Shown here piece by piece: positions 3,381 to 56,168 of a stretch of 64,000 nucleotides of DNA. Position 1 is the first letter of the stretch. Each line of letters starts with the position of its first letter. The DNA lies in contig NC_073391.1 in assembly GCF_028641065.1 (NCBI RefSeq), positions 34,162,001-34,226,000 on the forward strand, read 5' to 3'. The translations under genes were made by a program, and so were the position numbers. Below the pieces are notes generated by a model that was given only the letters and a program-made list of their open reading frames with translations, was not told the origin of the DNA and made no database searches. This stretch comes from Leucoraja erinacea. Taxonomy: Eukaryota.

Positions 3381-3763
3381 CTGGACAGCACAGGGCACAC
3401 AGTCATGCAGCACGGAGACAGGCCCTTTGGCTAAACTCGTCTATGCCGATCAAGATGCCCCACCTGCACTTGTCCCTTCTGCCAGCAATTGGCCCATATC
3501 CCTCTAAACTTTTCTTTAAGCTTAGTTTAGTTTATTAAAAGTCACGTGTACTGAAGTACAGTGTAAAGCTTTTTGTTGCGTGCTATCCAATTAACAAAAG
3601 ACTACAAATGATCACACTCAAGCCGTCCATAGTGTACAAATACAAGATAATGGTAATAACGTTTAGTGCAAGATGAAGTCCAATAAAGTCCATTAAAGAT
3701 AGTTCAATGGCCTCCAATGAGGTAGGTAAAAGGTCAGGACCACACTCTAGCTGGTGAGAAGAC

Positions 3764-4139
3764 CGGTCTGCATTAACCAACCTGATCTCCCAGTGGCTCA
3801 GCACTTCAACTTCACCTCCCATTCCGAATTCGACCTTTCTGTCCTGGGCCTCCTCCAACGCCAGAGTGAGCACCACCAGATATTGGAGGAGCAGCATCTC
3901 ATATTCCGCTTGGGCAATTTGCACCCTAGCGGCATAAACATTGACTTCTCCAATTTCCGGTAGCCCTTGCTGTCTCCTCCCCTTCTCAGCCCTCGGGCTC
4001 CTCCTCTTCCTTTCTTCTCTCCGCCCCCCACCCCAGCCCACATCAGTCTGAAGAAGGGTTTCAGCAAGAAATGTTGCCTCTTTCCTTCGCTCCATAGATG
4101 CTGCTGCACCCGCTGAGTTTCTCCAGCACTTTTGTCTAC
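3764..4139 (+). mobile_element. 5'-truncated Penelope-like element (GIY-YIG C-terminus plus 3' pLTR end) with 13-bp TSD
   Basis: Encodes ...PDLPVAQHFN...LEEQHLIFRLGNLHPSGINIDFSNFR*; CTGGTGAGAAGAC duplicated at 3751-3763 and 4140-4152; degenerate CTGAAGA hammerhead motif near 4048. Confidence 0.85.
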
Positions 4140-4485
4140 CTGGTGAGAAGACTGTTCTGTTGACTGATGAGAAAGTGTCCCTGAATCTCTATGTAACCCT
4201 GCATGCATTTTCAAACTCTTGTACCTTTTGCCTGTCTGACCCACCTCTGACTTTTAAATATTGTTATTGTACCTGCCTCAACTACCTCCCTCTGACAACT
4301 CATTGCCAGAGGAGAAAGTTGTGATAGGTTTGCAAATAAAGTTCTGATTCCCTGTAAAGTGTAGTGAAGACTGTATTTATCAGACAGAACCTGCCTGATA
4401 ATTTGCCGCAGGGCAGATTCAGGAGAAAGCCTTCAGTCTTGAAGCATGGTTTTGACCAAAAAAATGACAGTCCCTTCCGCCCCTT

Positions 4486-4512
4486 CCCCCCCCCCCCCCC
4501 CCCCCCCCCCCC
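4486..4512. repeat. Poly-C tract (27 nt)
   Basis: Direct reading. Confidence 0.9.
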
Positions 4513-4919
4513 AGATGCGGGTCGACCCACCGGACAAACTGCAAGCTAAAAACCGACGAAGGGTCTCGATCGAAATGTCGCCCATTCCTTCTCTCCAAAG
4601 ATACTGCCTGTCCCTGCTTAGTTACTCCAGCTTTTTGTGTTTATCTTCGGTTTAAACCAGCATCTTCAGTTCCTTCCTACACACATTTTTGATTGATTGA
4701 TTGATTGATTTATAGATACAACATGGAAACAGGCCGTTCAGCCCACTGAGTCATCGATCACCCGTTCACACTAGTTCTATGTTATCCCACTTTCACATCC
4801 AGTCCCCACATACTAGGAGCAATTTGCTGGGGGCCAACTAACCTACAAATCCGCAAGCCTTTGGGGTGTGGGGGTAAACCGGAGTAGTGATGGTTCCACA
4901 CTCACACAGAGGCACTTAC

Positions 4920-5048
4920 AGTTTTCTCAATCTCAGCTGCCTCTTCCCTGGGCATGCGATCCAGGAAGTCATGGTAGTGCTTGAGACCTATCGCCTGCTG
5001 TCTGGTGAGACTGGCTTTCGTCTTAATGTCCTCCAACGTTCTGAATCC
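4920..5048 (-). CDS. POLL: POLL coding exon 5 ([43 protein letters not shown])
   Basis: Hand translation matches the Pol lambda fingers region; tgcag|GGA acceptor and ACT|gtaagt donor; 129 nt. Confidence 0.96.
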
Positions 5049-5439
5049 CTGCAAAACACAGCAAAGGCACTGAAGCTTTTCGGTGAATAGTGCAAGGGAA
5101 AGGAAGTGGCAATGCAGAAGGGATCTTAATTTCCAGAAAAAGTTCGGTATTTACGAGCCTGGATGGGCTGTGGAAACCTTAATGGGTTAGTTTCTAACAA
5201 ATACATCAGCATTTATAGAATCATAGTCACATTCTATGCAAGCAGGCGCTTCGGCCCAACTCATTCATGCTGACCACGTTGTCTAATGGAGCTGGTCCTA
5301 TTTTCCTGTGTTGGTCAATATCCCTCAGCAGCAGCTTCTTCCCAAACTACCAACTCCAACTATACTCTGAACGACACTTTCTTGATTACGCAAGGGACTT
5401 GGGGCATTATCTTTGTCGTTGCACCATATTGGGTTTTTT

Positions 5440-5584
5440 TTGGCATTTGGGAGGAAACTGGAGCACCCGAGAAAACCCACGCAGGTCATGGGGTGACCGT
5501 ACAAACAGCACCCATAGAGAGGATCAAACCCGGGTCTCTGGCGCTGTGAGGCAGCAACTCGACTGCTGCGCCACTGTGCCACCC
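5440..5584 (-). mobile_element. tRNA-derived V-SINE (HE1-like), 5' part
   Basis: A box TGGCGCAGC, B box GGTTTGATCC and V-domain on the minus strand. Confidence 0.8.
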
Positions 5585-5640
5585 TACCAGGTTGAAAGTA
5601 CTGTCGGCACTCAGGACTCTGCACACCACAAGCTCCTCAC

Positions 5641-5814
5641 CTGCTGGTACCACATCTGGGCTGTCTTCACGCCAGCTCCCCAGATGTTGGAAAAGGTCCC
5701 CAGCACAGAGACACTGTCGCCCAGGTGATCTAACTTGCGCAGATGGCCAGTTTGCAGGATCTCCCAAATCTTCTCGGCCAGCCTCTTGCCGATCCCGGGG
5801 ATCTCACAGGCTTC
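5641..5814 (-). CDS. POLL: POLL coding exon 4 ([16 protein letters not shown]...[15 protein letters not shown]; HhH motifs, dRP-lyase Lys)
   Basis: Two helix-hairpin-helix motifs; ccgcag|GAA acceptor and CAG|gtgagg donor; 174 nt. Confidence 0.97.
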
Positions 5815-6528
5815 CTGCGGAGAGTGAACGGGAGCGATGATGATTCCGAAATGCACAAAACCCTGAGAGGGGCAGACTTTCAAAACAAAAAAACATGCAA
5901 AAAAAGATGTTGGAAATGCAAAATAAAACATACAATGTCAGAAATTCTTATCTGGTCAGGCAGCATCTGTGGGGACAGGCGGGCTGAACGTTTCAGGCCC
6001 ATGGAACTTCTGCTGAGGAATTCCAGATCTGAAACCTCAACGGGTTCTCTTTTTTTGTTCATTGATTCTCATTCATGGCATTTAAAAGACTTTTGTAAAG
6101 GCACATGGACATGCAGAGAAAGGTGGGGCATGGGCTACGTGCAAGTAGATAATAGGTATAGTGCGGCACATTGGCGTAGCTGTAGAGTGCTACAGATGCT
6201 GCTTGAGTCCATGGTGGGGAGAGTGGTCTGTGTGATGGGCCGGGCGCTCCATCCACAACTCTGTAATTTCTTGCGGCCTTGGGCAGAGCTGTTCCCAAAC
6301 CCAGCTGTGATACTAACATGTGTAGGAAGGAACTGCAGATACTGGTTTAAATGAAAGAATGACACAAAAAGCTGGAGTAACTCAGCGGGACAGGCAGCAT
6401 CTCTGGAGAAAAGGAATAGGTGGCGTTTCGGTTTGAGACCCTTCCTTAGGCTGAGTTTTTTGTGCTTTTTGTGTCTATCTGTGAGATGGAAGCTTCATTC
6501 CTTCGGGGAGGCGGTGAGAATGTTTTAC

Positions 6529-6837: not shown

Positions 6838-6934
6838 CTGCGGAGAGATCATAAATGGTGCTCAGTGGCAGGGTCCCTGGCATGACTGGGTTGAATGACA
6901 TACAAGGCGCGTTTGACAGCTCAGGGTGTGTACT

Positions 6935-7290: not shown

Positions 7291-7355
7291 GATTACATTT
7301 CATTGTTCCGTTTCGGGACACATGACAATAAAACACTTGACTCGTGTTTACTTAC

Positions 7356-10546: not shown

Positions 10547-10634
10547 GTACACGGAAATACTGGAGAAACTCAGCGGGTGCAGCAGCATCTATGGAGCGAA
10601 GGAAATAGGCAACGTTTCGGGCCGAAACCCTTCT
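10547..10634 (-). mobile_element. 88-bp Penelope-derived short insertion with perfect 13-bp TSD
   Basis: TCCCAAGTCTATG at 10534-10546 and 10635-10647; the insert is the pLTR 3' end, truncated inside the hammerhead motif. Confidence 0.8.
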
Positions 10635-11001
10635 TCCCAAGTCTATGTAGTTTGGAGCTTATGAAGTTTAATAGCCTAATTATAGGGAAGAGGTTAACAA
10701 TATTTAATAGACACTTGCACAGGTACATGGATGGGACAGGTTTGGAGGGAGAGGGGCCAAGAACAGGCAGGTGGGACATCTGGGCTAGATAATTTGGGCC
10801 GAAGGGCCTATGTCTGGTTTAAAGTGACCAACGGGCGAGGCCGGTGCGACAGGAAGCGGCCAATCAGAGCCCCGCTCCCGGCTGTGTGGCCCCGGGGCCT
10901 CTGCACCGGCGGGTTGATGATTAAATCACCGGAGCGGCGGGAGGGGAGCGCCGGCCGATCGCTGAGGTGACCCGGGCGGAGATGGCCGCGGCCTCACTCA
11001 C

Positions 11002-16103: not shown

Positions 16104-16367
<264 letters not shown>

Positions 16368-17135
16368 TGATTTTTAAATCATTCAACGTCTGGATTTACA
16401 GAAGGAGTAGTGGCGAAAATAATCCAGGAGAGAATCTAAGGCCACAAATTCAGAACCGTGTCCAATTGTGGACAATTCAGGCCACGGGAGTGGAGGAAGA
16501 AAAGTGATTCTTTTCCCCCTTCTCCTTCCACCTTTATCCCATACTCTGACTTCAAATGTCATGCCTCTTGTATCCGTCGTATAGAAACCGGGAACAGCCG
16601 ATGGTGGTTAATACACAAAAGGACACCAAGTGCTGAAGTAACTCAGCAGGTCAGGCAGCATCTCTGGAGAAACTGGATAGGTGACGTTTTGGGTTGAGAC
16701 CTACTGAGTTACTTCAACACTCTGTGTTCTTTTGCCTTTTCTCTCCTTATCTCACGACCTTTTGGCTTTTCGTCTCTGGCTTTTGTCCAACCGTCAGCCC
16801 ATCAACCCCCTCAACTATATCCACCTATCACTCACCCGGCTTTGTCCTGCCCCCACCTCTCTTCCAGTATTCTCTCCCTTACTACACTCAGTCTGAAGAA
16901 TGGTCCTGACCCAAAACATCATCTATCCAATGCCTTCAAGAGATGCTCCCCGACCCAGAGTTACTACAGCGCTTTGTGTGTTTTTTGTAAACCAGCATCT
17001 GCATTTCCTTGTATCGACAAAGTGGTGGCGATGCGTGTGGTTGAGAGCGGAATGGTGTTAACACCTGAAGGGACGGGCTGGCTGGGTGGGTGCTGACTGT
17101 AAACGTGTTCACTGGATATTTTTCCCTCCCATCAG

Positions 17136-18919: not shown

Positions 18920-20204
18920 CTGGTGGAAGAGGAAACAACAACAGTTAGCTCGGAAACGTGCCTGCTCCGATTTGTGCCCAGTTTGTCATTTTTGATGGAT
19001 TGAAAGATAGAGCAAGAAGCTGTTCCTGCGTCTGGTGATGCGCACATTTCAAGTTTCTGTTCCTACAGCCGGATGGGAATGGGGAGAAGAAGCTGTGACC
19101 GGGGTGGGATAAGTTTAATTCAATTTAGTTCTGAGATACAGCATGGAAACAAGCTCCTCGGCCCACCAAGCCCACGCCGAACATCGATCAACTATTCACA
19201 CTGGTTTCTATGTTATCCCACTTTCTCATCCACCCCCTAAGGGTCAGGAAACATCACTGGAGAAAAGGAGCTGGTGACATTACGGGTCGTGTCCCTTCTT
19301 CAGACAGTCGGGAGAGAGAAACGAGAGATATGATAATGTCTCAAAGCCAGCAACGATGATCAAGGAATGGTAGAGCCTACAATGGTCCATTGTTGGCTGT
19401 GGGAAAGGTGATATGATTACTAGAGTGGGGGGTGGACGAAGAGAGAGGAGATGTAAGGGTTACTTTAAGTTAGAGATATCAATATTAATACTGATGGGCT
19501 GTAAGGTGTTCAAGCAAAATATGAGGTGCTGTTCCTCCAGTTTGCGTTTGGCAAAGGGAAAGGGAAGTTATGCTTTCAATGGTTCGAAACCCTGTCAGTG
19601 TCCCTTGCCTCAACAACTGATAATGTGAAGACAACCCTCAGAGAAGAGAGTAAGTTGACTCCTTTCCCGAGGATGCCAGTCGCCATTATCCACCCAAAAA
19701 CACATATTGTTGGTGCCAGGGTGGTTTTGTTGGGTATTGCTGCCTGGCCTGCAGCGGGAAGGATATGGGTCCAATTACCAGGTGTCTACAATGGGACTCC
19801 TCTAAGGGTCATCAGTGTGGAGCTGTGCTGGCTGGGAGCACGTGGGGGGGGGGGGGGGGGTTCCTGACCAAGCGCGGTCCTAAAAGATCTCGGCGGAGGA
19901 TGGTGTCTGGTCGGTGGGTGGGGACCACAATGGCTGAGAAGGCGGCAGCAGGGAGAGACTCCCAACCGTGGTGGATTCCATGCTGTTTAACCCAGGCCAG
20001 TCTCTGTCTGGGACCGTGTGATGGTTGTCCGTGCACCAGGCTCCCCACGGTAAAGACATCACCCATGGGCGTGCGCCTGGAGGGACAGAACGCCTGTGGC
20101 TTCAGGATCAGCCATCTCCAAATCCACAGACAGGACCCACCGGGACAATCGCACTCCGGGTGATCATGGATGATTTAGTCAAAACTCTGCCACACCCATC
20201 CTAC

Positions 20205-21514: not shown

Positions 21515-22075
21515 GATTAAGATGTCATCAAGTTGGAAAGGGTGCAGAGAAGATTTACGAGGATGTTGCCAGTATTCGAGGGCCTAAGCTATAGGGAGAG
21601 GTTAGGCAAGCTAAGACTTTATTCCTTGGAGGATGGGGGGTGATCTTATAGAGGTGTACAAAATCATGAGAGGAATAGATCAGGTAAACACAGGTGTATA
21701 TATAAGGCAAATCAGGTACTCTATTACCCAGAGTATGGGGATTTGCAAACCAGAGGACATAGGTTTAAGGTGACGGGGGAAGATTTAATAGGAACCTGAG
21801 GGACAACGTTTTCACACAAAGGATGCTGGGTGTATGGAGCAAGTTGCAGGAGGAGGTGGGGTCTCGATCCGAAACGTCACCTATTCCTTCTCTCCGTAAA
21901 TGCTGCCTCACCCACTGAGTTTCTCCAGCATTTTTGTCTACTGCCAGAGGAGGTAGTTGAGACAGGTACTATTGTAAAATTTAAGAAACATTTTGACAGG
22001 TACATGGATAGGATAGGCTTAGAGGGATGTGCACCAAATGCAGGCAGATGAGACTAGTGTAGACGTGGCATGTTG
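21515..22075 (+). mobile_element. CR1 3' fragment interrupted by a short Penelope-derived insertion (~21858-21940)
   Basis: KLERVQRRFTRMLP motif; insert flanked by tgcaggaggaggt / tgccagaggaggt. Confidence 0.7.
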
Positions 22076-22609
22076 CTTTCTCTGTACTTTCACCCTATCT
22101 ATCCCCCCATGATTTTATACATCTCTATAAGATCACCCCTCAGCTTCCTGCACTCCAAGTTCTAATTTTCCCAACCTTTTCCTGCAGCTCAGGTCCTTTA
22201 GTTCTGGCAAAATCCTCATAAATCTTTTCTGCACTTTTTTCAGTTTATATCAGTGGCGTCAGACTTTGTTAAACTGCTTTTCGTTATTCCCAATATCACT
22301 GAGAAACAATCATAGAGCAGTACAGGATAGGAATGGGCCCTTCAGCTCACCGTGTCTATGCTGAACATGATGTTAAATTAATCTCCTTGCCTGCATGTAA
22401 TCCATATCCCTTCATGCCTTGTGTATCAGTCTGAAGAAGTGTCTCGACCTGAAACGTTACCCATTCCTTCTTTCTAGAGATGCTGCCTGTCCCGTTGAGA
22501 TACTGCAGCATTTTGTGTCTATCCCTGTGTATTCATGCGCCTGTCTAAAAGCCGCTTAAACACCACTGCCGTATCCTTTAGTCTCACCCGTGGTTGAGGG
22601 AAGACATTG

Positions 22610-27360: not shown

Positions 27361-27394
27361 AGCAAACACCTGAAGAGCATCATTGATGAGGGTT

Positions 27395-27602
27395 CAAAGA
27401 AAGAACCAAAGTGCTGGAGTAACTCAGCAGGTCAGGCAACATCTCTGGAGAACATGGGTAGCTGACATTTTAAATCGGGGAAGGGTTCCGACCCAAACTG
27501 CCGCCTATCCATGTTCTCCGGAGATGCTGCCTGATTTGCTGAGTTACTCCAGCACTTTGGGTCTTTTTTTGGTAAACCAGCATCTGCAGTTCCTCGTTTC
27601 TA
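27395..27602. mobile_element. Fold-back Penelope-derived element (two inverted pLTR ends) with degenerate 14-bp TSD
   Basis: Complementary arms of about 55 bp; CATTGATGAGGGTT 27381-27394 and CATTGTCGAGGGTT 27603-27616. Confidence 0.75.
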
Positions 27603-28239: not shown

Positions 28240-28454
28240 CGAAGGAAGGAACTGCAGATGCTGGTTTACACCGGAGATAGGCCACAAAATGCTGGAGTAA
28301 CTCAGCGGGTCAGGCAGCATCTTTGGAGAAAAAGAATAGGTGATGTTTTTCGGGTCAGGACCCTTCTTCACACTGTTTGACGAAGGATTCCAACCAGAAA
28401 CATCTCCTATTATTTTTCTGCCTGACCCGCTGAGTCACTCCAGCATTTTGTGTT
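28240..28454. mobile_element. Fold-back Penelope-derived element with 13-bp TSD
   Basis: Inverted arms around two opposed hammerhead remnants; CAGTTCCCTCTGG 28227-28239 and CAGTTTCCTCTGG 28455-28467. Confidence 0.75.
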
Positions 28455-29972
28455 CAGTTTCCTCTGGTGTCCTGTGTACCTACACGAGTCCTTGCAGGGT
28501 GTCACCATGCTAGCAGGCTGTGGTTCCAGGCGGAGAGTCTCGGCTTTCCCAACGGTTTGCACTGAGGGTCAAGATTAGGCCAAGGGCAATCAAAAACGAT
28601 AATTCAAAGGAGACACAAGGAACTGCAGAGGTTGGTTAACAAAACAAGACAAAGTGCTGGCGTAACTGGCCCTGGTTAGTAGGGCCGGAATTACAAGGAG
28701 AGGTTAAGCAGGCTACGACTCGATTCCTTGGAGCGTAGGAGGATGAGGGGTGATCTTAATGAGGTGTATGAGGAATAGATCGGGTAGACACACAGAGTAT
28801 TTTGCCAGTATAGGGGAGTCGATGAATCAGAGGACACAGGATTTAGATGAAGAGGGAAAGATTTAATAGGAACCCGAGGGGTGACTTTTTTTAATACACA
28901 AAAGTTGGTGGCTATATGGAACAAGCTGCCGAAGGAAGTACTATCATTACGTTTCAGAATCCTTTGGACAGATACAAGGATAGGAAAGATTTAGAAGAAT
29001 ATGGCAGGTGGGATTTGTGTAGATGGGGCATGTTGGTTGGCGTGGGCAAGTTGGGCCGAAGGGCCTGTTTCCACACTGTATGTATGGCTCTATGACTATA
29101 CGACTAATACTGGAACTGGAGCAGACCTTTCCACACCCCTTACCTGCTCCACCGTTCAATCAGTTTATGGCTGATCATTGGCACTTTCTCGCAAATCCTC
29201 CGATTTCCTGCATCTCTAAATGGATATAAAGAGTGGCATCAAAATGGAAGAGGAAGCTCTAATGAATAAAACCGAATGCTAAGCATAAGTATGAGTCAGT
29301 CATTTAAAAGACCCTTGGACCGATACATGGATACGAAACATTTGGAGGGATATGGGCCAGGCACAGGAGCTGGCTGCTCTTGAAAATGATGTCAGTCCTC
29401 TAGCTTTCACTTTGACCATCTTCCCAACCAACTATTCACGCGCTTTTGAGTGCAACATGCACTTTAATTTAGTTCAACAACGAAAATAATGTAACTGAAA
29501 AACCCAAAGGGACGAGCAACTAGCAGTTAGGCAACTTGGTTAGCATGGATGAGTTGGACCTAGGAGCCAGTTTCCATCCTGTATAACGTCTATAACTCCA
29601 AGTGCTGTGTGCTTTCTGGAAGGCAGTACAGAAATGCAACTTGGTCTTGAAAGGCTCTCTGCTGAGTGTGAAATGCCAGAGGAGATTTCTGCGCTCAATT
29701 CTTGGGCTCACCAACGGCTTCCTGCACTCACCACCTAGATGAGCAAACCTCAGCATTGACCTCCCGCCCCCCCACCCCGAGCGGGCCATACGGTTTGAAG
29801 GTTTGTCGCTCAGTCGGCAGTTGAAACCAAGATGCCAGGTCCTGCTGAAGGCTTCAACTCAAGCTGCCCCATGTGTAACCATGACTTCAGCAACATTATA
29901 TTTCACTTGGGTAGCTTACACTTCGATAAAACCAGCATCTGACCTTCTTTCCTACACCTTTCCCATCTCCAG

Positions 29973-30432: not shown

Positions 30433-30855
30433 CGGAATAGTCTCTCTCTCTCTCTCTTTAGTTCCCCAATTTTACCACCTTTATTGCATCCTTTTGAATT
30501 CTGTCCCTGAAGGACATCAAACTGAAACATCATTTGCCCATTACGTCCACAGATGCTGCCTGACCTGCGGAGTTCCTCCAGCTCTTTGTGTGTTGGTGAG
30601 AGGTGTCATGGCATCCGTGTGCAGAGATCCACAAAGTGGACAAACCCCTCGTAAAGGGACATGGATACAAAGGAGACGGGTCTATCTCAAAGTGAACTGG
30701 CGAGCTGGAGGTGATCAGGCAGTTTTGTTACGTACACTGCCTGCTCTCCTCTCAGGAGTTCCCAAAAGAATGTAGTTGAAGAAACGTCTCGGTACCAGCC
30801 CAGTGGGTTTGAAAGAGTATGTTTAAAAAATATACTGGGAATCATAGTTGTTGGT

Positions 30856-31532: not shown

Positions 31533-31737
31533 GAGAGAAGAGACAAGCAACTGCAGGTGTTGGGGGAAAAAAAGACACAAAGTACTGGAGTTATTTGGGT
31601 TAAGCAGCATTTCCGGAGGACATGGACAGGTGATGTTTCAGTCCAAAGAAGGATCCCGACCCAAAACGTTGCCTGTCCATGTCCTCCAGAGGTGTTGCCT
31701 GACCTGCTGAGCTACATTAACATCTTGTGTTCTATAC
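31533..31737. mobile_element. Degenerate fold-back Penelope-derived element
   Basis: Inverted arms; eroded TSD ATGGGAATGCCGTA / ATGGGAAACCCATA. Confidence 0.6.
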
Positions 31738-32790: not shown

Positions 32791-35700
32791 GAATAATCTT
32801 GTTCTTATGTAAGCCTCGCAAAGGCTGACATTTGTTGTCAAATTTTAATTAGAATCATACAGCATGGAAACAGGCCCTCCTGCCCAGCCTGTCCATGGCA
32901 ACCAAAGTGCCCCATCTATGCTGGTCCCATTTGCCTGCATTTGACCTTTCTCCCTCTAAATATTTCCTATCCATATACCGTCCAAATGTCTTTCAAAAAT
33001 ATTATTGTTTCTGCCCCAGTAAATCCTCTGGCAGCTTGTTCCATATACCCACCACCATCTGTGTGACAATGATTGCCCTCAAGTTCTTATTAAATCTATA
33101 GAATTCCTAATACATCTAAAACAGAGATTAATAGATATTTACTGGACATGAGAATTTTTAAAAAATGGAGCCTAGATGTGGTTGTTAGAATCACAGATCA
33201 TTGATGAGCTAGCAGGAGCTAGATTAAAGGGCTCAATGGCCTCCTCCAGGACATGCATGACATGAAACTGTACAGAGCTTGTACTTTTCTGTACAAAGTT
33301 TGTACCTTCCTGTACGCAGTTTGCACGTTCTCCCTGTGACCGCGTGGTTTTCTCCTGGTGCTCTGGTTTTCTTCCGCACTCCAAAGACATACAGGTTTGT
33401 AGGTTAATTGGCTTCTGTAAATTGTAAATTGTCCCTTGTGTACAGGATAGTGCTAGTGTGCAGGGTGATCGCTGGCACAGTGGGCCGAAGGGCTTGTTAC
33501 AGTGCTGTATCTCTAAACTAAACTAAACGTGAAAGGACCAGACAGAAATTGGAGACCATCCTTTAATTACAGACCCCTTTGTACAATGCATTTGGGTAGT
33601 TGTCAGACTGTTTCTGTTGTGGGGTATTTGCAGAATTAGGAAACAATTTGACCTGCTGATTGAAAGGTTAACTCCCTGCTCTGTGCCCACTGCAATTTTG
33701 TACATTAACGGATTAACAGGAGTCATGTCGCAGGGTTACGATGTGCTATCCAGAATGATAAAGCAGGCCACCTGAAAGTAAGGAACAATGTTTCAAACAG
33801 ATTCAGATGGGATTACCTGGCATTGCCAATATAGCCAGAGGGTTTTCCACAAATGTCCCCTGTACTTGGGTGGGGGGAGGAAAAGTGAAAGAACATTTCT
33901 CACCTCTATCTTTCTGTCTGAAGAAGGGTTCCGACCCAAAACGTCACCTATTCCTATTTTCCCCCCAGAGATGCTGCCTGACCCACTGAGTTACTCCAGC
34001 ATTTTGTATCTATCTTCGGTATAAACCAACATCTGCAGTTCCTTCCTGCACAACAGATAGTTAATCAATGGGCGAGAGAGTGTTAGACCATCTGTGTGCA
34101 AGATCACACTTGTGCAAGAATACCTTTGAGCAATACAGAGTGTGAGAATGTGCAAAGGAATTTTCAGGGATCCCAGTCAGCTGTCTCCAATATTAATTAT
34201 GTCCAGAGTCATGCATACAGAGTCACAGAGTTTTCACCCAGAGTAGTAGAGGCAAGAGCCAGAAGACATAGGTTTAAGGTGAGGGGGGAAAGATTTCATA
34301 TAGGGACTCGAGGGGTAACTTTTTCCACACTGGAAATGAGCTGTTAGAGGCGGTAGTTGAGGCAGGTACTATAACAACATTTAAAAGACTGTTGGACAGG
34401 TACATGGATAGGAAAGGTTCAGAAGGATATGAGCCAAACACAGGCAGCTGGCACTAGTGTAGATGGGGCATCTTGGTCGGCGTGGACAAGTTGGGCCGAA
34501 GGGCCTGTTTCTATGCTGCGTGATTCTTTGACAGGCATCTGGGAGAAAAGCACGCGTAAATTATCTTTTTACAATATGGGATTATTCCTCCTGAGCAAAA
34601 CATCAAGGAAGAGTAGACCGCATGGAAAGAGGAAAATAGATACTAAAAAAAAAAATACTGAACTTAAAAATGAAGTTTTGAAAACCAAACATTCAATCAA
34701 GTGGAGCAAGCACAATGTGTCTGGGTAGAAATCCTGGAGGAGGGGAATTTTACTCGCTTTTCGCTTTAGAAATATTCACTTGACTGGAGCTGCCTGCAGC
34801 GTATCAGGATTTCTTTTAGCTGCAGAGCCTTCGCATTGAGCAAAGGCAATACCTTCCTTTACAAAGCCCAGATTCCTCCACTCCCCTCCGCACAGCCGCT
34901 GGGTACGGCTGCGCCTTTTCTCTCTTTTATTTTAACCCCTCTTGTAAAGGTTAAGTTTGTGTGTGTAAACGGTCATGTCGCACAGCTATGAGAAACAGCC
35001 ACCCCCTGCAACTGGCGAGCAAAGACAGTGACCTGCAACCCTTGTTACTCCTGCAAAAACAAACAGAGATGGCACTGTACCCTCTCCTTATTAACCATCT
35101 GTTGCTACCAGTGGTTGCACTGTGCCACGACACAATGCAGCCCGCCTTCCACCGGGCCACCCACAACTAACGCAAAAGCCTCCTCCCCCAGCCCCCTTGT
35201 TGCAAGCAAGGGACCCTAAAGCTTCCCTCTGCACCACTCCGACCCTTCAGGAGAACACACAATGCGGCAGGGTTGGAGGACGATGAGGCATGTTGGAAGT
35301 GCAATAAGGCTTTTCAATGCAGCCTGCCTTTCATTGCTGGCTGCGTAGCAACACAGATTTGGTTGACATCATTGTGGGGATCTAAGCCAGGCTGTGCAGC
35401 CTTAAAGAGAAAGGGGAGGGGGTGAAGTTTAACTGATTAAGGTCGAGGTGGGGCGTATTGGTGGGTAGGTATGGCTGCATCGGCTGCGGCACTACAAAGT
35501 CATTGTATCGGCTTTTTTTTAAAAAATCTAAAAGGGAGAACCTTTAAATAACACACAGGGTGCCAAGTAGACTTGAGGATAAGGCACTGGGGTAAAAATG
35601 AGATTCAGGAATTGAGAATATCCAAGAGAGTAGATAAATGTGGAGCATTAAAGGGGAGATCGAAAAAAAATGGAGGGAGATGGAGAGAAATTACAAACGC

Positions 35701-39740: not shown

Positions 39741-40344
39741 ACAAGCATTATACAAGTTGCTAACCATACCTGATTAAATAAAACATTTACATACATTTAG
39801 CATTCCCATTTCTCAATAACAATAACATTTTATTGACCAGATTCATAACTTAATTCCTGTAGCCTCTTGGCATAGGATATTTGAAGAAGTCACCAACTAA
39901 CTTTCCTATTGTAGAAACAAGGAACTGAGGATGCTGGCTTCCAAATAAGGCATAGAGTGCTGGAGTAACTCAGTGCGTCAGGCAGCATCCTGAACATGGA
40001 TAGGTGACGTTTCAGGCTGGGACCCTTCTTCAGGTTTTGGTGGGATGGGAGAAAGCTTGAGGAGAGGAGAAGCAGGACAAAGTAGATGGTTGCGCAAAGG
40101 CTAGAGATAAAAAGACAAATGTGTGAGATAAAGATAGAATAGTTGTGAATTGTGAAGACAGTGGAGGGGAACGTAGGTGTATGGGGAGCAGGAGGGGGGA
40201 AATGGGCGTGGTTGATCTACATCTTATGGTAACCATAGACTCCTTCTTCACTGTCCTGCCTCAATTTTGGTGTCATCTTCAAACTTACCAATCATGCTAC
40301 CTATATTCCCATCCAAATCACTAACATATATGACTGTGGATGAA

Positions 40345-40703: not shown

Positions 40704-41662
40704 AAATGATGGAAGACCCAGTACTGGTCCTGTGGCACACTACTGGTCGCTGGCCTCCACCTGAAAAACAATCCTTCACTACCACCCTCTGCCTCTTTTT
40801 ACTCAACTATTGTATCCACTTTGCTAACTCACCCTGAATCCCAAGTCTTCTAATCATCCCGATCTGTTCCCGCACAGGACCTTGTTAAAGGCCTTGCTTT
40901 AGTCCAGTTAGGGCTAAGAAGACATTGCCACCGCATTATGTTGGATTGGATTGCACTTCAGTCAGAGGAAGCTTTGAAAGGTCAGTGTTGTCAGAAAGTG
41001 CAATACCAGGCACCATCTGAGCTTTGGTATCTTGCCAGGTGGGTCTGTACACTTCCGAATCATTGCTGTCAGTAACAAGATGTCTTCTTTGATATGGTTC
41101 CCCATCTCATCTCTGCAAAGCTTTCAGTAGATAAAGAGACGGCAAACTTCCAGTTTGGCAAAGAGCAGAGTTTACAAAATTATTCACCAAGGATGAGGGT
41201 GAGATCACATCAAAAGATCCCACGTTGGAGACATGCCACATCAAGGAATCCCAGTCATACCACAAGCTACTGGAGCTGGCAGAGTGTTGCAAACAAGGGG
41301 ATTGAAGTGATCCAGCCCATCACATTTGATGTTTATCCTCGGCCAAACAATATTTAACACTACATTTTGGCACATTCATCAGTCTGAAGAAGGGTCTCGA
41401 CCCAAAACGTCACCCATTCCTTCTCTCCAGAGATTACTCCAGCATTTCATGTCTATCTTCGATTTAAACCAGCATCTGCAGTTCCTTCACACACTACATT
41501 TAGCACTTTCCGAGAACTTTCAACTTTAGAGAAACGGCACGGAAACAGTCCACGCCGACCAGCGATCACCCAGTACACTAGCACTAACCTACGCACTAGG
41601 GACAATTTACAGAAGCCAGTAAACCCACAAACTTGTACATCTCTGGAGTGTGGGAGGAAACT

Positions 41663-45200: not shown

Positions 45201-46027
45201 TGGTCAGACCATATGAATGAACTAAGCACAGCCTTGAATGTTTCCTTAAAGTACTTTCCTGACATTAGAGGAATGAGTGATGTTAATGAAAAGTAAACAA
45301 ATTCTTAGAGGCATAAAAAGGGTATATTTTGACTAGCTATTTCTCTTGATGGCAAGTTTAGAACAAGAGGCATAGTCTCAGGATAGTCAGCCACTTAAGA
45401 CGGAGATGGGGAAATATTTATTCACTCAGAGTGCTGTGAGTGTTTGGCTTTCTCCAATCCAGAGAGGCAGGTAGTCAAATTGGGGAAATCAAAGAATATG
45501 GGGATTAAGTGGGAAAGTGGAATTGAAGTAGTATTATAGTAGTGAAGGATGGGAAAGATTCAAGGGACTGACTGAACTACTATTGTTGATTCTTTGAAAG
45601 AAAAATAGCACCCACCCAGTTATAGCCATATAGCATGGAAACAGGCCCTTCGACCAAACTTGCTCAGCGCAACCGACATGTCCCATCTACACTAGTCCCA
45701 CCTGCCTGCATTTGTCCCATATCCGTCTAAACCTATCCTATCTACCCGTTTAATGTTTCTCACTGACCTGCTGAATACAGTAAAAGAGAGAAGACTTACA
45801 GTTAAGCCTTTATATGGATTTCTGCAGCTCCTTATAGACCCCTTTCAGGATGCCCAATTATAATTTTCAGCTAATAAAATGTTTAGTTTTAAATGCCAGT
45901 CCACCATTGCAAAAAGCACATTAAACAAATTTTACAGAGCAATATCCCACCATCAGCAGGAGCTAAATACCTGACAAAGGAGGTATATATGGTAGATCGA
46001 ACTGTTGTGAAAAATGGCAGATCGAAT

Positions 46028-46120
46028 CTGAAGAAGGGTCTCGACCCGAAATGTCACCCATTCCTTCTCTCCAGAGATGCTGCCTGTCCCGCTGAGTTAC
46101 TCCGGCATTTTGTGTCTATC
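46028..46120 (+). mobile_element. Penelope-derived short element with the best-preserved hammerhead-like core (CTGAAGA A GGGTC TC GACCC GAAA TGTC)
   Basis: CUGANGA at 46028-46034, stem II GGGTC/GACCC at 46036-46047, GAAA at 46048-46051. Confidence 0.7.
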
Positions 46121-47166
46121 TTTCATTTAACAGTTAAATGTGAGGCCAGCAAACAAATAGGAACAGAGAATGCAAGAGAAAGAATGTTCTATGTTGGATG
46201 AACATTTAGTGACTTTGTCGGTGCAAAAACATGACGACTCTTTTGTGTCCTGCCGTGGTGAGGTCTGCTGTATGATTTTACCAGCTTGAATCATTGAAAA
46301 GCCACGAAGAAAGAATGAATGAATAAAGAGCGAAATATAAAGCAAATCAGAAAAAGTGACAAATATAAAGACAAATTGCTAGACTCGGAAACGTGAGAAA
46401 ATAAAAACATTATTCAGACTTAGAACCAAAAAGCATTACAAAAAAAATTAAAGGTGTGAAAAGGAAAGGAAATGCAAGCAATTTAGATAGTGGGAGAACA
46501 CAGAAAGCCAAACCAAAGAAAGAGAAAAAAGGCCACATCATCTGTCAGAGCCTTTGAACAGCCTCACTCAACACCTAAACGTGACACCTGTCTATTACAA
46601 ATAGATCTGTTACTTCTTGCCCTTCTCAGCAGGCTCGACACTAAACCACTTGCACAAGCTGCCAGTCAAATGAAGAGCGATTGCCAGTTAAAAGAGAAAT
46701 TAAACTACTAGACAAGACTAATCTCCTTCAATTGCCTGTGCTTGCCTCTTCACTAGATAAACTCAAACCCTGTCTATCCGTGTTGCTAATCCTGACTAAT
46801 ACAGCTTTGTTACTCGGGCAGATTCGGGCTCCCCAGCTGCACTGAGCTATCACTCCACTGCAATGAAAACAGGCCTATAAATTTCCTTCACATTTAAAAT
46901 CACTGGCATTGTTTACTGACCCCTCAAGTGTACAGCTTCATAATATTACTACCTACACCTGATATAGAGGTGGTTGTCACAGGAATGGTTACAGGTCGCC
47001 AATCCCTCTCCTCACTACAACACCCTGCATGCTCATCTTCCTCATTGTGTTGATGTCCAAGGTTAATCAACACCCTTTCTGCTCATTCTTCCCCATCACC
47101 TTAATACAAAACACTGAATTAGTCTCTTCCTCAGGGTTTTTAAACTGTGGCTAAGTGACTTTACAC

Positions 47167-47450: not shown

Positions 47451-47559
47451 TAAGTGGGTTGCATTCTAGTTTCCGAGTCATAAAGTTGATGGTTCAAATC
47501 CCCTTCCAGGACAAGTTGGCAAGTTGTAGCCAAATTTAATTGCCACGGTAATAGGAGCG

Positions 47560-48545: not shown

Positions 48546-49108
48546 CAGAATATCTGGCAAAAATGGAGGAATGCTGCACTGTCTGAGTTGCCCTTTCAGA
48601 TGAGGTATTAAACTAAGGGATCCCCTCACCTCCAAGTGAACATTAAAGATCCATGGAGCTTTCTAAAGAGCAGCAACATAGTTCTCCCACGAGTTGCAAG
48701 CAATATTTGTATCTCAAACAACTCTAATAACAGGTGTAGAAATAAGGAACACCAGATGCTGGTTTACAACTAAAGGACACAAGGTGCTGGAGTAACAGCG
48801 GGTCAGGCAGCATCACTGGAGAACATGAATAGGTGACGTTTAGGGTCTGGACCCTAGTAACAGGTAACCTGGCTGTCATCTCATTGCTGTTTGCGGCAGT
48901 TTCCCCTTGTGCGTTAGCTGGCCACTGTGTTTCCTCATCATGCCGATTGTGCATTAAAAGTATCCGACTGGTTGTAGAACACATTAGAACGACTGAAGGT
49001 TGTGAAGGGTGCTGAACAAATGCAGGTTCTTTCCACCCTCTGAAAAAAGAAGGGCTCCAGTAATAACACAAGGACACAGACTGAGATTCATAGGGTCGGT
49101 TCCCTTAC

Positions 49109-49174: not shown

Positions 49175-49911
49175 CTAGAAAATAGAAAGTACAAGCACTT
49201 ACCAAACAAAAAGGTGCATCAAAATAACTTATATATTTTCCTATTCCTGTATTCTATTAGAGCCCTTGATTTGGAATGGATGCAAGTAATCCTCACTTTA
49301 CCCCAATAACATTTTGTGTCAGGGGCCATTGTGCAAAAGTATATATACGAGACAGAAAAGAGACATGGGGACAACAAATTTGAGTCTCACCACGGTCACT
49401 CCCTCTTCTCCCCTCTCCCATCGAGCAAGAGGTACTGATGTACACCTTCAGGTTCAAGAATCTTACTTCCCAGCTGTTATCAGGCAACTGCACCATCCTA
49501 TCACCAACTCGAGAACGGTCCTGACCTCCCACCCACCACCTCGGACTACTGCTCTAGTAATATAGAAACATAGAAAAATAGGTGCAGAGTACGACATTCA
49601 GCCCTTCGAGCCAGCACCCGCCATTCAATATGATCATGGCTGATCATCTAAAATCAGTACCCCTTTCCTGTTTTTTCCCCATATCCCTTGCTCTGTACAT
49701 CTCAAGATCAATTTTGGACCTTGCAAAGGCACCAGCCAGCTTTATTCATCAGCCTTGCCCTCGGACCCACCAGAGATCGAGGGACAGGGAGAAGGGGTAG
49801 TAGCAGTGGATCATCCATCATTATCCATCATTTCTGTATGAAAAGAGCTCCACTTTGGCAAGTATTGTATTACCCGAGCTCTAATGCAGGAGGTTAAAAA
49901 ACAAACCGAGA

Positions 49912-50063
49912 TAGACACAAAATGTTGGAGTAACTTGGCGGGACAGGCAGCATCTCTGGATAGAAGGAATGGGTATCCAGTGATGCTGCCTGTCCCACTG
50001 AGTTACTCCAGCATTTTGTGTCTATCTTCATTGTAAACCAGCATCTACAGTTCCTTCCGGCTC
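49912..50063. mobile_element. Fold-back Penelope-derived element (~53-bp stem, 11-nt loop) with 14-bp TSD
   Basis: Arms gatagacacaaaatg...ctggata and tatccag...cattttgtgtctatc; AAAACAAACCGAGA 49898-49911 and AAAATAAACCGAGA 50064-50077. Confidence 0.8.
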
Positions 50064-53000
50064 AAAATAAACCGAGAATGGGTCTACACAAATCATGCAT
50101 GTAGGTTCTATCAAGGAATGGGTTAACACTAATCAAGTGCTGGATACATGGTTAAGAGCAGGGGAGGTGTGACGAAGGGGCTCGGAGGGGGGAAGAGATT
50201 GGAATTAGCCTTTCTCCAGTTGGTACACTGCTCTTGAGCAGGCCTGAATCATTTATTACACAACACAATACAGGGGTGGAGCAGTTTGCACAATCCCACA
50301 CAGGCTGTGGATCACCTGAAAGACCCCCTCCCCTGTTCCTGCCACTACCTGCTGTGTTCCCACCACCTAGCCCCTTTCACTACCCCTGGGGGACCATCAC
50401 ACTCACGTACACACTAATAGCTTTTAGTTTCCATTCATACAAAAACTGCCGCACTAAAATTGGCCAGCAGACCACCAACACTGAGCCCTCCCCAACCCAA
50501 CCTTTCATAGCCAGGGTTTTGCTGCAATCCTCACCTCAAGCCCCAGACAAAGGCACTAAGGCATCTCAGAAACTTATTTTAGCACTAAAGGACCAAAATG
50601 TTCAAACTTCTTTACAATTTTTGATCAATGAAAATAAACCTCCCTTTGATAACTGGACAGAGATATCCCTGGCTCATTTTATTAGTTGCCTTTGCTGATT
50701 GGCAAATAGAACAATTCACCACATGGAGGCAGAATTAGTGACTCATGAAACAGCACCTGAAATACGTGAATTGCTTTTAAAATAGACTAGTGAAAAGGGT
50801 GCGATTTGTATATCGTACAACAAAGGTTATGTAGCAGGTTAACAGATTTTCTTTGCAAGTTTACGGATTCTGTGTAGATTTACAGATTTACTCTGTATTC
50901 AGGCGATTCACAGCATCAATGTATGGAGTCTGTTTATTTAAGGTTGCTTTATCGAATTGTATTAGTTTCAAAAGTATTACAGTTCAATGTAACTGCACAC
51001 GTCACTCAGCATTTAAGATACAATACTCATTGTGTTGCTGTTTATTTGTAGGGGGTCACTCTTTGTCTAATTGCATCAAATTAATATTTAGGGCAAGGTT
51101 TATTCGCTACGTAAGTTCAAAAAACAGCACAGAGTCAAAGTTTATTCAACGCACGACTGCTCAGAATGGGGGAGCATTCAGGACGGCGTGGATAACGCCG
51201 GGTCCCTTGGTCTGGAGCAGGTAGCAGCCCCGCACCAGCTCCCACACTACCTACCCGCACCTGCCAAGCAAGTCCCACCTCACTGTGGCATCGTCTGCAG
51301 GTCTCACATCAGCCAACTCAGAATGCACAGAGCCAGTCGTCCTGCAACCCAAGGGATAGCCTAAGATGGTGAAGGTTAGACTTGACTGTTTAGACCACGT
51401 CAAGTAATATCAGACGTCAATCTCCTCTTCCCAACCCATGGCCCGCTTCTCTACCTTAGAATAAGGATATTCTTGGTTTCTTTTATCCATTACTATTTCT
51501 TAAAATCTCTTCCTCTTCTGCCTCTTCCCTTTCTACCCACTACTTCATCAAGTGCAAGGATTTCAGGGACTTGTCTTTTCACCCAGACTTCATTCCCACT
51601 GTTGACCATCTACCTGTCTTATGTCAGCACAACGGGTTCCATTACCCCTTTTCCAAGTCTTTGCAAACTTTGTCACTACCAAAAAACACACCCGTAGCTC
51701 TCTTTTCCCCCATCCACAGTTGCTGAATATGTAGTCATCTCAAGTCAATGGTGATTTTTGCCATTGCCTTATGTTTGAACGTTTAACATCTGACTCCACC
51801 ACTGCCGTGGTATTGAAGCAACATAATCAAACATGCCAACTATGACCGGCAATCATTGTCCTTCTTCATCTTCACAACGATATAGGTAGCTGGCAACATG
51901 ACTGTAACTACCCATGAGAAGTTGTGGCAGTGACCCAGGACCTTCAATTCCTGACCCAGGACAAAATTCCTGGGCACACCTTGGATCCCTTACACACGTC
52001 AGGGCCGTCAGGTTGGCCCATCCAAGAACCAACGTGATGAGTTGTTATAATCCTGATTTTAGAAAACAGCCTGAAGAAGCGCCTCGACCCAAAACGTCAC
52101 ATGTCCATGTTCTCCAGAGATATTGCCTGACCTGCTGGGTCCTCCAGCACGATGTGTCCTTACAATATTAGTGATTGTGCAAAGAGACAGACTGCGCATG
52201 GCTTGAGATCTTGCTGAGGTCAATACGAGCTTCACATGGAGGCAATCAATGGAAAAATGTGTGTATGGACATGGTATGGTAATTACTCTCAAACCTCTCT
52301 AAGATTATGGGAGCTGAGAGAAGGATTAGCCTTCAGGGTGATATAGACATGATAATGAATGGGCACAGACATAGCAAATGTAGTTCGGTAAATGCAAGGT
52401 CATCTATTAGGATAAGATTTAAAAAAAGAAAGCAAGAGTATTTTTCACAGCTCATTTTCAATGATAAGAGATTGAAAGGTGCTACTGTTCAGAGCAACCT
52501 GGTGTCATTGTACGCGAATCATTCACTTACAGTTAACAGCAGGTACAGCAAGCAATTAGGAAGGCAAATGATGCGAGAGCCTTTTTTTTTGCAACAATGA
52601 GGAGATACGTCTTGCTCCAATTATAGAAGCTCCAGGTGAAATTGTACCTAGAATATTTTGAACAGATCTGAGATTATACCATTCCTTGGGTAGAAGCTGG
52701 GGAGTGAGTCAATTTAAGGGGTGGGGGGGGGGCTGAGAAGGGAAGACATTTCTTCACACGAAGGTGGCAAAGCTTTCTCTACTATCTCTACTCACAAGGG
52801 CTATGGATGCCCGACTGTCGAGTACATTCAAAAGAGAGATGATAGATTTTTAAATATTAATGAAATTAAGGAATATGGTGTAGGTGAATGATGCCAAGAT
52901 AAAATATCTTAATAAATGGTGCAAGAGGTAAAGGGCTGAATTCTATCACTTTTTACATTAATCCCTACGATTCCAATCCTCCAACTTCCTCAAACATTAA

Positions 53001-54029
53001 CTCATCCAAGACTCGGGAGAGCTTATTGTACTTTGCATCAATTCCAGCTCATTCATCAGTCTTGTGCCCAAGCACGCAATTGTAAAATACTCACCCTTGC
53101 ATTCTATTAAGAGAATGAATCTCAACATTAAAGTTGCTGTATAAATACAAATTATTATTGCTTCACAAATCATTATTATTATCCCACAAAGCTCCTGCCT
53201 ATTCACAGGGTGATGGCTTCTTGGGCAATTATGAAGCGTTAGACTCAACATTTCTGTTCGACCACAAATAGATAATGCTAGTATTTCACAGAGACTGTCA
53301 GTTGTCCTACTTATCCAGTTTTTGAAATACTTCAGTAACAGTCAGATTCAATTTTACAGTCCAAAGGAAAAAGCACACAAAAAATATCTCGCCCCTGACT
53401 GTATGAATAGTATTTTCCACAATTTACAGTTAAAGATTTTTGTAGCCACCCATTAGAAGTGGTGGGTCGATGGGCTGCCACTCAGGATCTTTCACAAATA
53501 TTGCGAGGCGGGCATTCCATATGCTCAGTGTAAATTAACCACAGCTCACAGTCAGACTTTAAGAGCCAGATCACAAGACGACCAACAGGCAGTTAATGCA
53601 TACAGAATTCATTTCAACACTAGGTGGTTATTGGGGAAAGAAGTGGATCTGGCATAAATCATGCCACTAAGTGGAGATCCTGACCTCAGACGGCGTGGGA
53701 AAGCAGAAATTTGATGCAATGTTCAACGGAATTTCTCCATCTTCAGCCAATTTAACATGGACAGTGGAAACCAGACCATAATATTGCAAGCCAAAGTTAT
53801 GTAGTGCAACCTGTGCAAAGTCCATCGTGGTCCATTTGCATGTGGCTGAAGAGTCTGATGGCTGTTGAGAAGAAGAAACCTGCTGGTCACAGTTTTCAGA
53901 CTCCTGTACCTTCTTTCCAATGGTAGTAGCAAGATGAGAGCATTGTCATCTTGGTTCGATCCTGACTACGGGTGCTGGCTGTATGGAGTTCGAACGTTTT
54001 TTCCGAGATGAGAAAAACATTTTTTTAGG

Positions 54030-54292
54030 ACCAAGATGAGGAAAACATTTTTTCACACAGAGAGTGGTGAATCTCTGGAATTCTCTGCCACAGAAGGTAG
54101 TTGAGGCCAGTTCATTGGATATATTTAAGAGGGAGTCAGATGTGACCCTTGTGGCTAAAGGGATCAGGGGGTATGGAGAGAAGGCAGGTACAGGATACTG
54201 AGTTGGATGATCAGCCATGATCATATTGAATGGCGGTGCAGGCTCAAAGGGCCGAATGGCCTACTCCTGCACCTAATTCCTATGTTTCTATG
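54030..54292 (+). mobile_element. CR1 3' end with tttctatg tail
   Basis: MRKHFFTQRVVNLWNSLPQK motif and the canonical short 3'UTR. Confidence 0.8.
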
Positions 54293-54878
54293 TCAGGGTG
54301 GCGTGGGTCTTTGATGATATTACCTGCCTTTGTGAGGCAATACTTTCGGTGGATGGTGGGGAGGTCAATACTCATGATGGACCTAACATTACCTAACCAT
54401 ATTTCCTCACATCTTGCTTACCCAATTAATTCTATATAATTCAGCAAATATAGCTGCAGTATACTCAGGACTGATTAAGATGGGATGAATGGATAGAACC
54501 ATTAGTAGATGTATCAAAGGCCAGCATGCAGAGATAGAAATAGAACATAAAAAGTACAGTCATTCGGCCCTAAATGTCTGTGCTGAACACGATACTAAGC
54601 TCAACTAATCTCATCTGCTTTGCATCATGTTCGACACAGATTTTAAATGATGGAGAACGTATTGGAAATAGAACCAATCAGGCTTTCAAATGACAATTGC
54701 CCATTAGTTGCAGATCAGAGAGTCTATCGAAGACTCTATCCTCTTCTTAGAGTTAATCCACCCTTTAAATGACGGCGAAATCCCTTAAAAAACCCATTTA
54801 AGGAAGAGAAGGAAATCTCGCTTGTGTCCTCGCTATTAGTTATCTCCTAACCAACAACTGAAACACAGATCATCTGGT

Positions 54879-55214
54879 AATAAAAAAGAACTGCAGATGC
54901 TGGTTTATACCAAAGATAGATGCAAAATGCTGGAGTAACTCAATGGGTCAGACAGTATCTCTGGAGAAAATGGATAGGTGACATTTCAGGCCTGGACCCT
55001 TATTCAGACATCTGCTGAGCCTGATGGTTGTTGAGAAGAAGCTGTTCTTGAACCTGATGGTCAGAGTTTTCAGACTCCTGTACCTTCCTCCTGACGGTAG
55101 ATGAGAGATTTGCCATGGTGGTGTGGGTCTTTGATGATATTACCTGGCATATTGAGTTAGTGCCTCCTGCAGATCCCTTGGATGCTGAGTTACTTCAGCA
55201 TTTTGCGTTTATCT
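54879..55214. mobile_element. Composite insertion: inverted Penelope-derived ends enclosing a Rex1-like fragment, perfect 14-bp TSD
   Basis: ACAGATCATCTGGT at 54865-54878 and 55215-55228. Confidence 0.75.
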
Positions 55215-55371
55215 ACAGATCATCTGGTGATCGTTGCTTTGGAGGTGGTGGGAGCATACTATGAATACATTGATGGCTCAATTTGGCAATAATTGCACTT
55301 CAAAAGTACTTTACTGATTGTGAAACCACACTTCTATGCACAGAGGTTGTGAATGATGCTATCTTTCTACT

Positions 55372-56168
55372 GTATACAAAAATGCTGGAGAAACTCATCG
55401 GGTGAGACTGCATCTACGGAGCGAAGGAATAGGTGACATTTCGGGTCGAGACCTTTCTTCAAACTGATGTGGGGTTGGGGGGTGGGCGGGAAGAAGAAAG
55501 GAAGAGGCGGAGCCGGTAGGCTGTGGGAGAGCTGGGAAGGGGAAGGAGGGAGAACGTAAGGACTACCTGAAATTGGAGAAGTCAATGTTCATACCGCTGG
55601 GGTGTAAACTACCCAAGCGAAATATGAGGTGCTGCTCATTGAGTTTGCAGTGGGACTCACTCTGGCCATGGAGGAGGCCCAGGACAGAAAGGTTGGATTC
55701 GGAATGGAAGGGAATGGAGTTGAGGTATTGAGCCACCGGGAGATCGGGTTGGTTAATGCGAACTGTGCGGAGGTGTTGGGTGAAGCGATCGCCAAGCCTG
55801 CGCTTGGTCTCACCGATGTAGAGCAGTTGACACCTAGAACAGCGGATGCAATAGATGAGGTTGAAGGAGGTGAAGGTGAACCTCTGCCTCACCTGGAAAC
55901 ACTGCTTGGGTCCTTGGATGGAGTCGACGGGGGGGGAGGTAAAGTGACGAGCGTAGCATTTCCTGCCGTTGCAAGGGAAAGTACCAGGGGAGGGGGTGGT
56001 TTGTGTGGGAAAGGACGAATTGACCAGGGAGTTACGGAGGGAGCGGTCTCTGCGGAATGCCTAAAGGGGGAGGAGATGGGAAGATGTGACCAGTGGTGGG
56101 ATCCCGTTGGAGGTGGCGAAAATGTCGGATGATTATCTGTTGTATGTGACGGCTGGTAGGATGGAAGG
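55372..56168 (-). mobile_element. Penelope-like element 3' part (GIY-YIG endonuclease plus pLTR end)
   Basis: RQRFTFTSFNLIYCIRCSRCQLLYIGETKRRLGDRF..HLR (GIY-YIG with CxxC); hammerhead-like motif downstream at ~55433-55465. Confidence 0.88.

Follow-up and report, generated by a model that had tools for sequence, protein, structure and literature searches.

We analysed a 64,000-nt window of the Leucoraja erinacea genome (assembly GCF_028641065.1, contig NC_073391.1, positions 34,162,001 to 34,226,000 of the forward strand), in which a short hammerhead-bearing repeat recurs as a part of Penelope-like elements (PLEs). Positions below are counted from the first nucleotide of this whole stretch. 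The repeat is modular: a minimal hammerhead is followed by a core of ~65 nt and an optional tail of ~38 nt, and two discrete 3' ends give a unit of ~95 nt without the tail or ~133 nt with it. A 33-mer from a preliminary description of this DNA served as the starting query, with 100 shuffled sequences as controls; it matches the window five times when up to 3 mismatches are allowed (none in the shuffles) and 22 times when the limit is 11, against an expectation of 0.02. A profile hidden Markov model trained on 12 tailed genomic copies detects 32 copies in the 64-kb window, among them 15 of the 15 copies named before. The preliminary description had estimated 15-20 copies of 90-200 bp; the repeat is real, and it is the copy number and the supposed continuum of lengths that had to be revised.

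Three copies are joined to the end of an open reading frame (ORF). On the plus strand, a 5'-truncated Penelope copy of subfamily F4 (3764-4139) runs from a GIY-YIG ORF end through an 86-nt pyrimidine-rich untranslated region (UTR) into a decayed hammerhead (4047-4077) and a tail-less core, and is flanked by a 13-bp target-site duplication at 3751-3763 (left copy) and 4140-4152 (right copy). A second 5'-truncated copy, of subfamily F5, lies on the minus strand at 55372-56168 and comprises a cysteine linker and a GIY-YIG end (165 open codons, ~55566-56060), a 102-nt UTR, a decayed hammerhead and a core, again without the tail. The third remnant, overlooked before (19241-19545, minus strand), keeps the final ORF codons, a 158-nt UTR and a decayed hammerhead, and its 3' part is gone. 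The motif had been placed directly 3' of the GIY-YIG ORF; the linkage holds, but the motif begins 86 and 102 nt past the ORF end, after the pyrimidine-rich UTR. Four head-to-head inverted pairs, also absent from the preliminary description, lie at 27392-27594 (F0/F0), 28241-28457 (F3/F3), 31546-31731 (F0/F0) and 49904-50065 (without a hammerhead). One arm is tailed in each of them, and the pairs at 28241 and 49904 have a 7-bp flanking repeat.

The parent element

The endonuclease (EN) end encoded at 55372-56168 matches Pfam PF01541 at 23.0 bits, compared with a cut-off of 22.6, and the earlier GIY-YIG assignment holds by this narrow difference; another EN copy gives no Pfam match. Relatives in the same genome run upstream into a reverse transcriptase (RT); its motifs and the EN end lie within a single frame of 746 codons. 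The Pfam RVT_1 match of this RT region is weak (E 0.025, below the cut-off). The RT-EN linker CX4CxxC is present in loci L171 and L172, and a CX2-5CxxC linker between RT and EN is described as a mark of the Neptune and Nematis PLEs (PMC8557442). On sequence grounds, the parent is classed as a Neptune-type PLE, placed by this linker motif, which is common to Neptune and Nematis, and not by a tree.

The module is also found in front of the ORF. Among 25 loci fetched with the 5' region of the ORF, 12 carry it directly upstream of the ORF start (3 of the 12 duplicate one locus), and the predicted ATG follows ~35 nt past the tail. The autonomous unit therefore has the module at both ends, just ahead of the predicted ATG and past the stop, which identifies the repeat as the terminal module, or pseudo-long terminal repeat (pLTR), of several Neptune-type PLEs. 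Bounding repeats of 10-14 bp occur in 3 of the 8 module-flanked units tested, and one of these repeats begins 8 nt ahead of the hammerhead. The Penelope origin proposed in the preliminary description is supported. The skate elements have the features of EN+ PLEs, namely one ORF that combines an RT with a GIY-YIG endonuclease at its C-terminus, a pLTR formed by partial tandem arrangement with a hammerhead, an optional tail, an inverted 5' copy and a target-site duplication. They share with the described Neptune/Nematis elements the RT, the cysteine linker, the C-terminal GIY-YIG and a pLTR that extends over the beginning of the following unit, as well as the inverted 5' copy, a tail of 30-40 bp on one side and the target-site duplications (PMC8557442, PMC3846280).

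Some individual units deserve mention. L200 and L181 are chimeric, with an F0-type module ahead of an ORF start common to units of the F4/F5 type; this arrangement suggests that templates were switched between subfamilies. In L266 (G000:C5:38418801-38428000), a 3.5-kb unit at 1266-4802 has a 10-bp bounding repeat and a front module whose start lies around position 28-35, near the predicted cut site; this is a single case. The flanks of L189, L190 and L195, and those of L152 and L153, are near-identical over 1.5 kb, so these loci are segmental duplicates or redundant contigs and not independent insertions.

Abundance and ends of the short copies

The profile was applied to 140 evenly chosen 10-kb stretches (1.4 Mb) of the 2.19-Gb genome. 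It gives 603 matches in this sample and none in 700 kb of control, which extrapolates to ~0.94 million copies genome-wide (bootstrap 0.82-1.07 million), or 4.0% of the DNA. The amplification claimed in the preliminary description is thus very large. The copies fall into six subfamilies (F0-F5) that diverge by 3.7-14.6% from their own majority sequences; the module is common to all six, and the UTR that precedes it differs between them. Long members exist in all six subfamilies and ORF-linked copies in five, the one ORF-linkage match of F3 being a 26-nt deletion junction. An ORF end lies within 420 nt of 40 of the 603 copies. The other 563 are without a detectable ORF end, and in this predominance of the module alone, in its sharp 5' boundary and in a one-tail rule that can be quantified, the skate family is unlike the EN+ PLEs as described. 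A tandem arrangement is seen in L264 (G000:C22:37078501-37087600), where five or six partial modules of ~66 nt follow head to tail at ~4210-4640 on the element strand; this locally expanded tandem resembles an incipient retrozyme-type satellite, and a similar 50-nt array exists in L026.

The 5' ends of the short copies concentrate at the front edge of the hammerhead. Breakpoints were pooled for F2-F5, F0 and F1 being omitted with only 3 long references for them, and an initial set of 30 loci, biased by the query flank, was excluded from the end statistics. Of the F2-F5 single copies that reach the front edge, 62/138 end within the 11 nt at -10 to 0. Farther upstream, 22/57 end within the 120 nt at -41 to -160, which gives a ~13-fold per-base excess at the edge. 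Duplications of at least 10 bp near the edge flank 10/77 short singles and 0/77 controls; because these duplications abut the edge, the short copies are separate insertions with real ends there. Of four contig runs, those of three organism codes have loose ends at this edge; neither a start nor a strand nor expression can be read from contigs, and they are not counted as RNA evidence. No heap of 5' ends is found where the hammerhead is predicted to cut (of 354 starts, 6 lie in bins 26-30 and 8 in bins 31-35), and cleaved RNA was rejected as the template on these grounds.

Neighbouring copies are strongly oriented. Among 132 pairs of adjacent copies, 105 are head-to-head, compared with 6, 8 and 13 in the remaining orientations, so that 210 of the 603 copies sit in 105 head-to-head pairs, a pair being defined by starts within 60 nt. 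Exactly one arm is tailed in 80 of the 105 pairs, neither in 18 and both in 7, whereas 51.9 one-tailed pairs are expected (p = 2e-8). Both arms belong to the same subfamily in 70/78 pairs, compared with 21% by chance, and a flanking repeat of at least 9 bp is present at 31/97 pairs and at none in the control, a single duplication enclosing both arms. The 105 pairs have 99 distinct junction types, which rules out the copying of pairs as whole units. Editing of the hairpins from A to I before insertion was likewise rejected, as 179 paired arms show no A-to-G strand bias and A-to-G dominates no pair (at most 6/20 or 5/16 changes). Short palindromes at module positions -4 to +5 (the edge) and 10-21 (stem II) recur at the pair junctions. 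The edge motif also resembles a Pol II initiator.

Origin of the short copies and pairs

Solo modules, inserted with target-site duplications, are probably run-off cDNAs of the element RT, made from the front module in uncut RNA. The element RNA would begin at about the front edge of the hammerhead, and the RT would prime at one of two internal sites, the end of the tail or that of the core, and run off the RNA 5' end after 133 or 95 nt. Making a long copy would require that the RT jumps to the 3' module copy or begins there. In the pairs, both nicked target strands would be primed, one per start site, and the two cDNAs would join at the short palindromes. The Poseidon element of the anole provides in vitro data for comparison: its tail is delimited by two internal RT start sites, cleavage and extension occur on both strands of the target, and the template is mainly RNA that has not been cut (PMC11167929). 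A more specific version is possible, although we lean against it. An RT dimer would prime both nicked strands, with one subunit per internal site, and the cDNAs would run off at the hammerhead edge and anneal to give one-tailed pairs. On this view, the short copies would amount to strong-stop-like DNA, a template jump would restore the pLTR in the manner of LTR (long terminal repeat) elements, and the approximately one million copies would be frozen first-step products. In the literature that we searched, we did not find 'Penelope' and 'strong-stop' together in that sense.

Several points weigh against run-off from a front module. The 60-nt definition of a pair excludes long arms. The in vitro data for the mechanism come from a Poseidon element, whereas the skate family is of the Neptune type, and head-to-head pairs have been attributed in PMC3846280 to self-priming on an antisense template. 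Some front modules run 270-650 nt further upstream into an ORF end (L183, L184, L189, L193 and L194), which means that templates are sometimes longer or that jumps are repeated. Core A sites of the hammerhead decay more slowly than other A sites (38/1245 vs 73/1193, p = 3e-4), a difference that would not be expected if the decay were purely neutral; T sites in the core and elsewhere decay equally (p = 0.83). The slower decay may reflect selection, or alignment in A runs together with sequence context. Finally, the heap of breakpoints is a smear from ~+12 to -20, and a structure-induced stall or microhomology joining could give the same.

Such smeared breakpoints would also fit ordinary 5' truncation, the standard account (PMC8557442). 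In this account, synthesis on a long RNA would begin at its 3' module, the RT would stall, or be released, on leaving the structured hammerhead region, and pairs would form by fold-back of a single cDNA at a palindrome. This account needs no assumption about the start site, and the pair junctions often lie within the stem II or edge palindromes. However, the heap of 5' ends lies outside the stem, at -10 to 0. Fold-back also predicts that one class of arms is longer, but no arm is consistently the longer one (24 vs 32), and some junction palindromes have a 1-nt centre (L089), which is too tight for a loop. Moreover, an inverted partner is rare on long copies (6/92 long segments, in a separate check that covered long arms). 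We consider 5' truncation an unlikely source of the short copies.

The preliminary description had instead proposed a separate SINE-like (short interspersed element-like) non-autonomous family, in which the short copies themselves are transcribed and recopied in trans. A short copy does contain both putative RT start sites and the initiator-like edge motif, and short copies outnumber the ORF-linked ones. In rotifer, pLTR sequences are described as sufficient in cis for mobilisation (PMC3846280), and vertebrates are reported to have pLTR-derived retrozymes (bioRxiv 10.64898/2026.07.22.740005). However, the whole short unit is PLE sequence, with nothing of its own. ARAGORN finds no tRNA genes in the window, and the Rfam scan of the window gives no match to a tRNA-, 5S- or 7SL-type head. 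No poly(A) or repeat tail is found on the short copies, and nothing is common past the tail among 157 tailed copies, with the exception of one tandem block. In the four subfamilies tested, F2-F5, no common variant is significantly specific to short copies, the smallest p values in ~80 tests (0.008 and 0.046) both belonging to variants richer in long copies; short-only subfamilies are absent too. Short and long copies are equally diverged, and the long-to-short ratio is similar across the four (13/42, 8/20, 26/83 and 15/46). A dedicated SINE-like family is not supported and we regard it as improbable, although some secondary copying of short copies may occur, as judged from a sample of 603 copies. 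The skate modules share with animal non-LTR retrozymes a pLTR derivation, a hammerhead and a non-coding nature, but retrozymes are described as head-to-tail tandem arrays with one hammerhead per unit (bioRxiv 10.64898/2026.07.22.740005); here only 21 of the 132 adjacent pairs lie on the same strand and the head-to-head orientation dominates.

We find it very improbable that short copies derive from spliced RNA, with a 3' splice site (a pyrimidine tract and YAG, as in Drosophila virilis Penelope) at the front edge: a pyrimidine tract is present in all long subfamilies, mostly with YCAG just ahead of the motif (28/41), and the D. virilis Penelope intron is described as ending at helix I (PMC4209133), but the short singles have no upstream exon in common, the duplications adjoin the edge, many short copies retain 3-8 nt of the would-be intron, and the ORF end is joined straight to the motif in none of the 40 ORF-end copies.

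The hammerhead and its published relatives

In all six subfamilies, the majority sequence fits a minimal type I hammerhead, with CUGANGA, GAAA, NUH, an extra nucleotide, G10.1-C11.1 and a palindromic 15.2-16.2. The earlier reading of the motif, with an extra A and a palindromic stem III, matches the minimal PLE hammerhead published in PMC4209133. A descriptor independent of the profile has 41 matches in the 1.4 Mb, all in the PLE-module family, whereas each of three controls gives 0. Helix I has only 2 bp in 36 of the 41 matches and is not a stable helix; its pairing probability is at most 0.004 in four folded copies. Helix II has 4-5 bp. A 2-bp helix I is likewise reported for D. virilis, whereas in the Schistosoma type helix I has 4-5 bp and helix II has 7-8 bp (PMC4209133). 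The hammerhead is the minimum-energy fold in none of the four folded copies; stem II forms in one of them, and the rest favour rival hairpins. The Rfam scan of the window, with E up to 5, gives no hammerhead match. Its five weak matches are to other families, and the microRNA ones, at 31604 and 49918-50018, are inverted pairs, the former being produced by the pair at 31546-31731.

Most copies have lost the core, as the preliminary description had stated. Among 253 scorable sampled copies, 206 are broken and 47 intact, 26 of the latter in the youngest subfamily, F4 (26/38 scorable copies). None of the 32 window copies has all six core features. The tailed F0 module at 39918-40033 (minus strand) comes closest to this but has G10.1-U11.1; in the solo terminal module at 46027-46121 (F2, plus strand; hammerhead 46027-46057), the stem III palindrome has UG where CG is expected. 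CpG decay, held to be the main cause of the loss, is confirmed in part: of the 206 broken cores, 133 have a CpG transition and 56 have CGAAA changed to CAAAA, but CpG changes alone account for only 32. The preliminary description had counted a lack of stem II covariation against its reading, and at the level of the six closely related subfamilies the stem changes are one-sided and keep the pairing (U-A to U-G twice and C-G to U-G once), in addition to a change of GUC to GUU, with no compensatory double change found.

We predict that the hammerhead is a weak, dimer- or protein-dependent passenger that would be dispensable for making short copies. For minimal hammerheads of PLEs, cleavage is reported to be weak and to take place in dimers (PMC4209133, PMC6765202), and that of the anole element cleaves only with its protein and is dispensable for insertion (PMC11167929). 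Minimal type I hammerheads are known from the pLTRs of metazoan PLEs, including Xena, Poseidon and Neptune, and solo copies and opposite-strand duals are reported in the same paper (Cervera and De la Pena, 2014, PMC4209133). PLE descriptions already in print cover the motif and the solo copies as well as the inverted pairs and the tail. The number of intact cores is extrapolated to ~64,000-73,000 here; for coelacanth and Xenopus, the published figures are ~4,000 and ~9,000 (PMC4209133). The main text of that paper names no shark, skate or cartilaginous fish, and we found no description of the skate module family in cartilaginous fish in the literature, although it may be named in the supplements of PMC4209133 or of the bioRxiv preprint, where one chondrichthyan is included. 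The Poseidon element of Anolis carolinensis, PAc, similarly has a hammerhead at the pLTR-ORF junction, and its tail is likewise delimited by two copy ends (Frangieh et al., 2024, PMC11167929). However, its ATG lies within stem II and not ~165 nt downstream as predicted here, and the clades differ.

The family therefore carries little weight as a ribozyme or as a new class of element, and its worth lies in scale, regularity and end statistics. Approximately one million sharp-ended copies offer testable rules on the way in which the terminal repeats, inverted ends and tails of PLEs are built: the 5' boundary, one tail per pair and the same template for both arms. The ~160,000 near-perfect hairpins extrapolated from 105 pairs per 1.4 Mb could be sources of double-stranded RNA. 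They could also be mis-annotated as microRNAs or miniature inverted-repeat transposable elements, in a genome of which the module makes up ~4%.

The remaining copies of the window are profile matches as well. Solo tailed modules lie on the plus strand at 4555-4684 (F2), 33917-34053 (F3, with a G12-to-A change) and 41383-41495 (F2, with an internal deletion, a G12-to-A change and an 11-bp flanking repeat), and on the minus strand at 6318-6448 (F3), 48743-48855 (F0) and 54884-55008 (F0). Solo tail-less modules are found at 21857-21940 (F5, the core lacking its 5' part), 22430-22524 (F2) and 52071-52161 (F0) on the plus strand, and at 10547-10636 (F4) on the minus strand, where a 13-bp target-site duplication adjoins the hammerhead edge. 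Two tailed F0 modules stand back to back within 16591-17010, with ~190 nt between them: one on the minus strand at 16591-16702 and one on the plus strand at 16892-17010, which has ~147 nt of shared UTR upstream. They are possibly a long-armed pair or two insertions. Old F1 modules on the plus strand comprise a tail-less one at 30509-30592 and three (158-254, 525-637 and 1392-1509) outside the originally noted range of 3751-55465. Weak or partial matches complete the set, at 5920-5999 (weak and old, minus strand), 16242-16299 (partial, plus strand) and 55181-55225 (weak and partial, plus strand). Pieces of other abundant repeats at 56230-56600, 4730-4800 and elsewhere in the window resemble the 3' ends of CR1-type long interspersed elements and their partner SINE.

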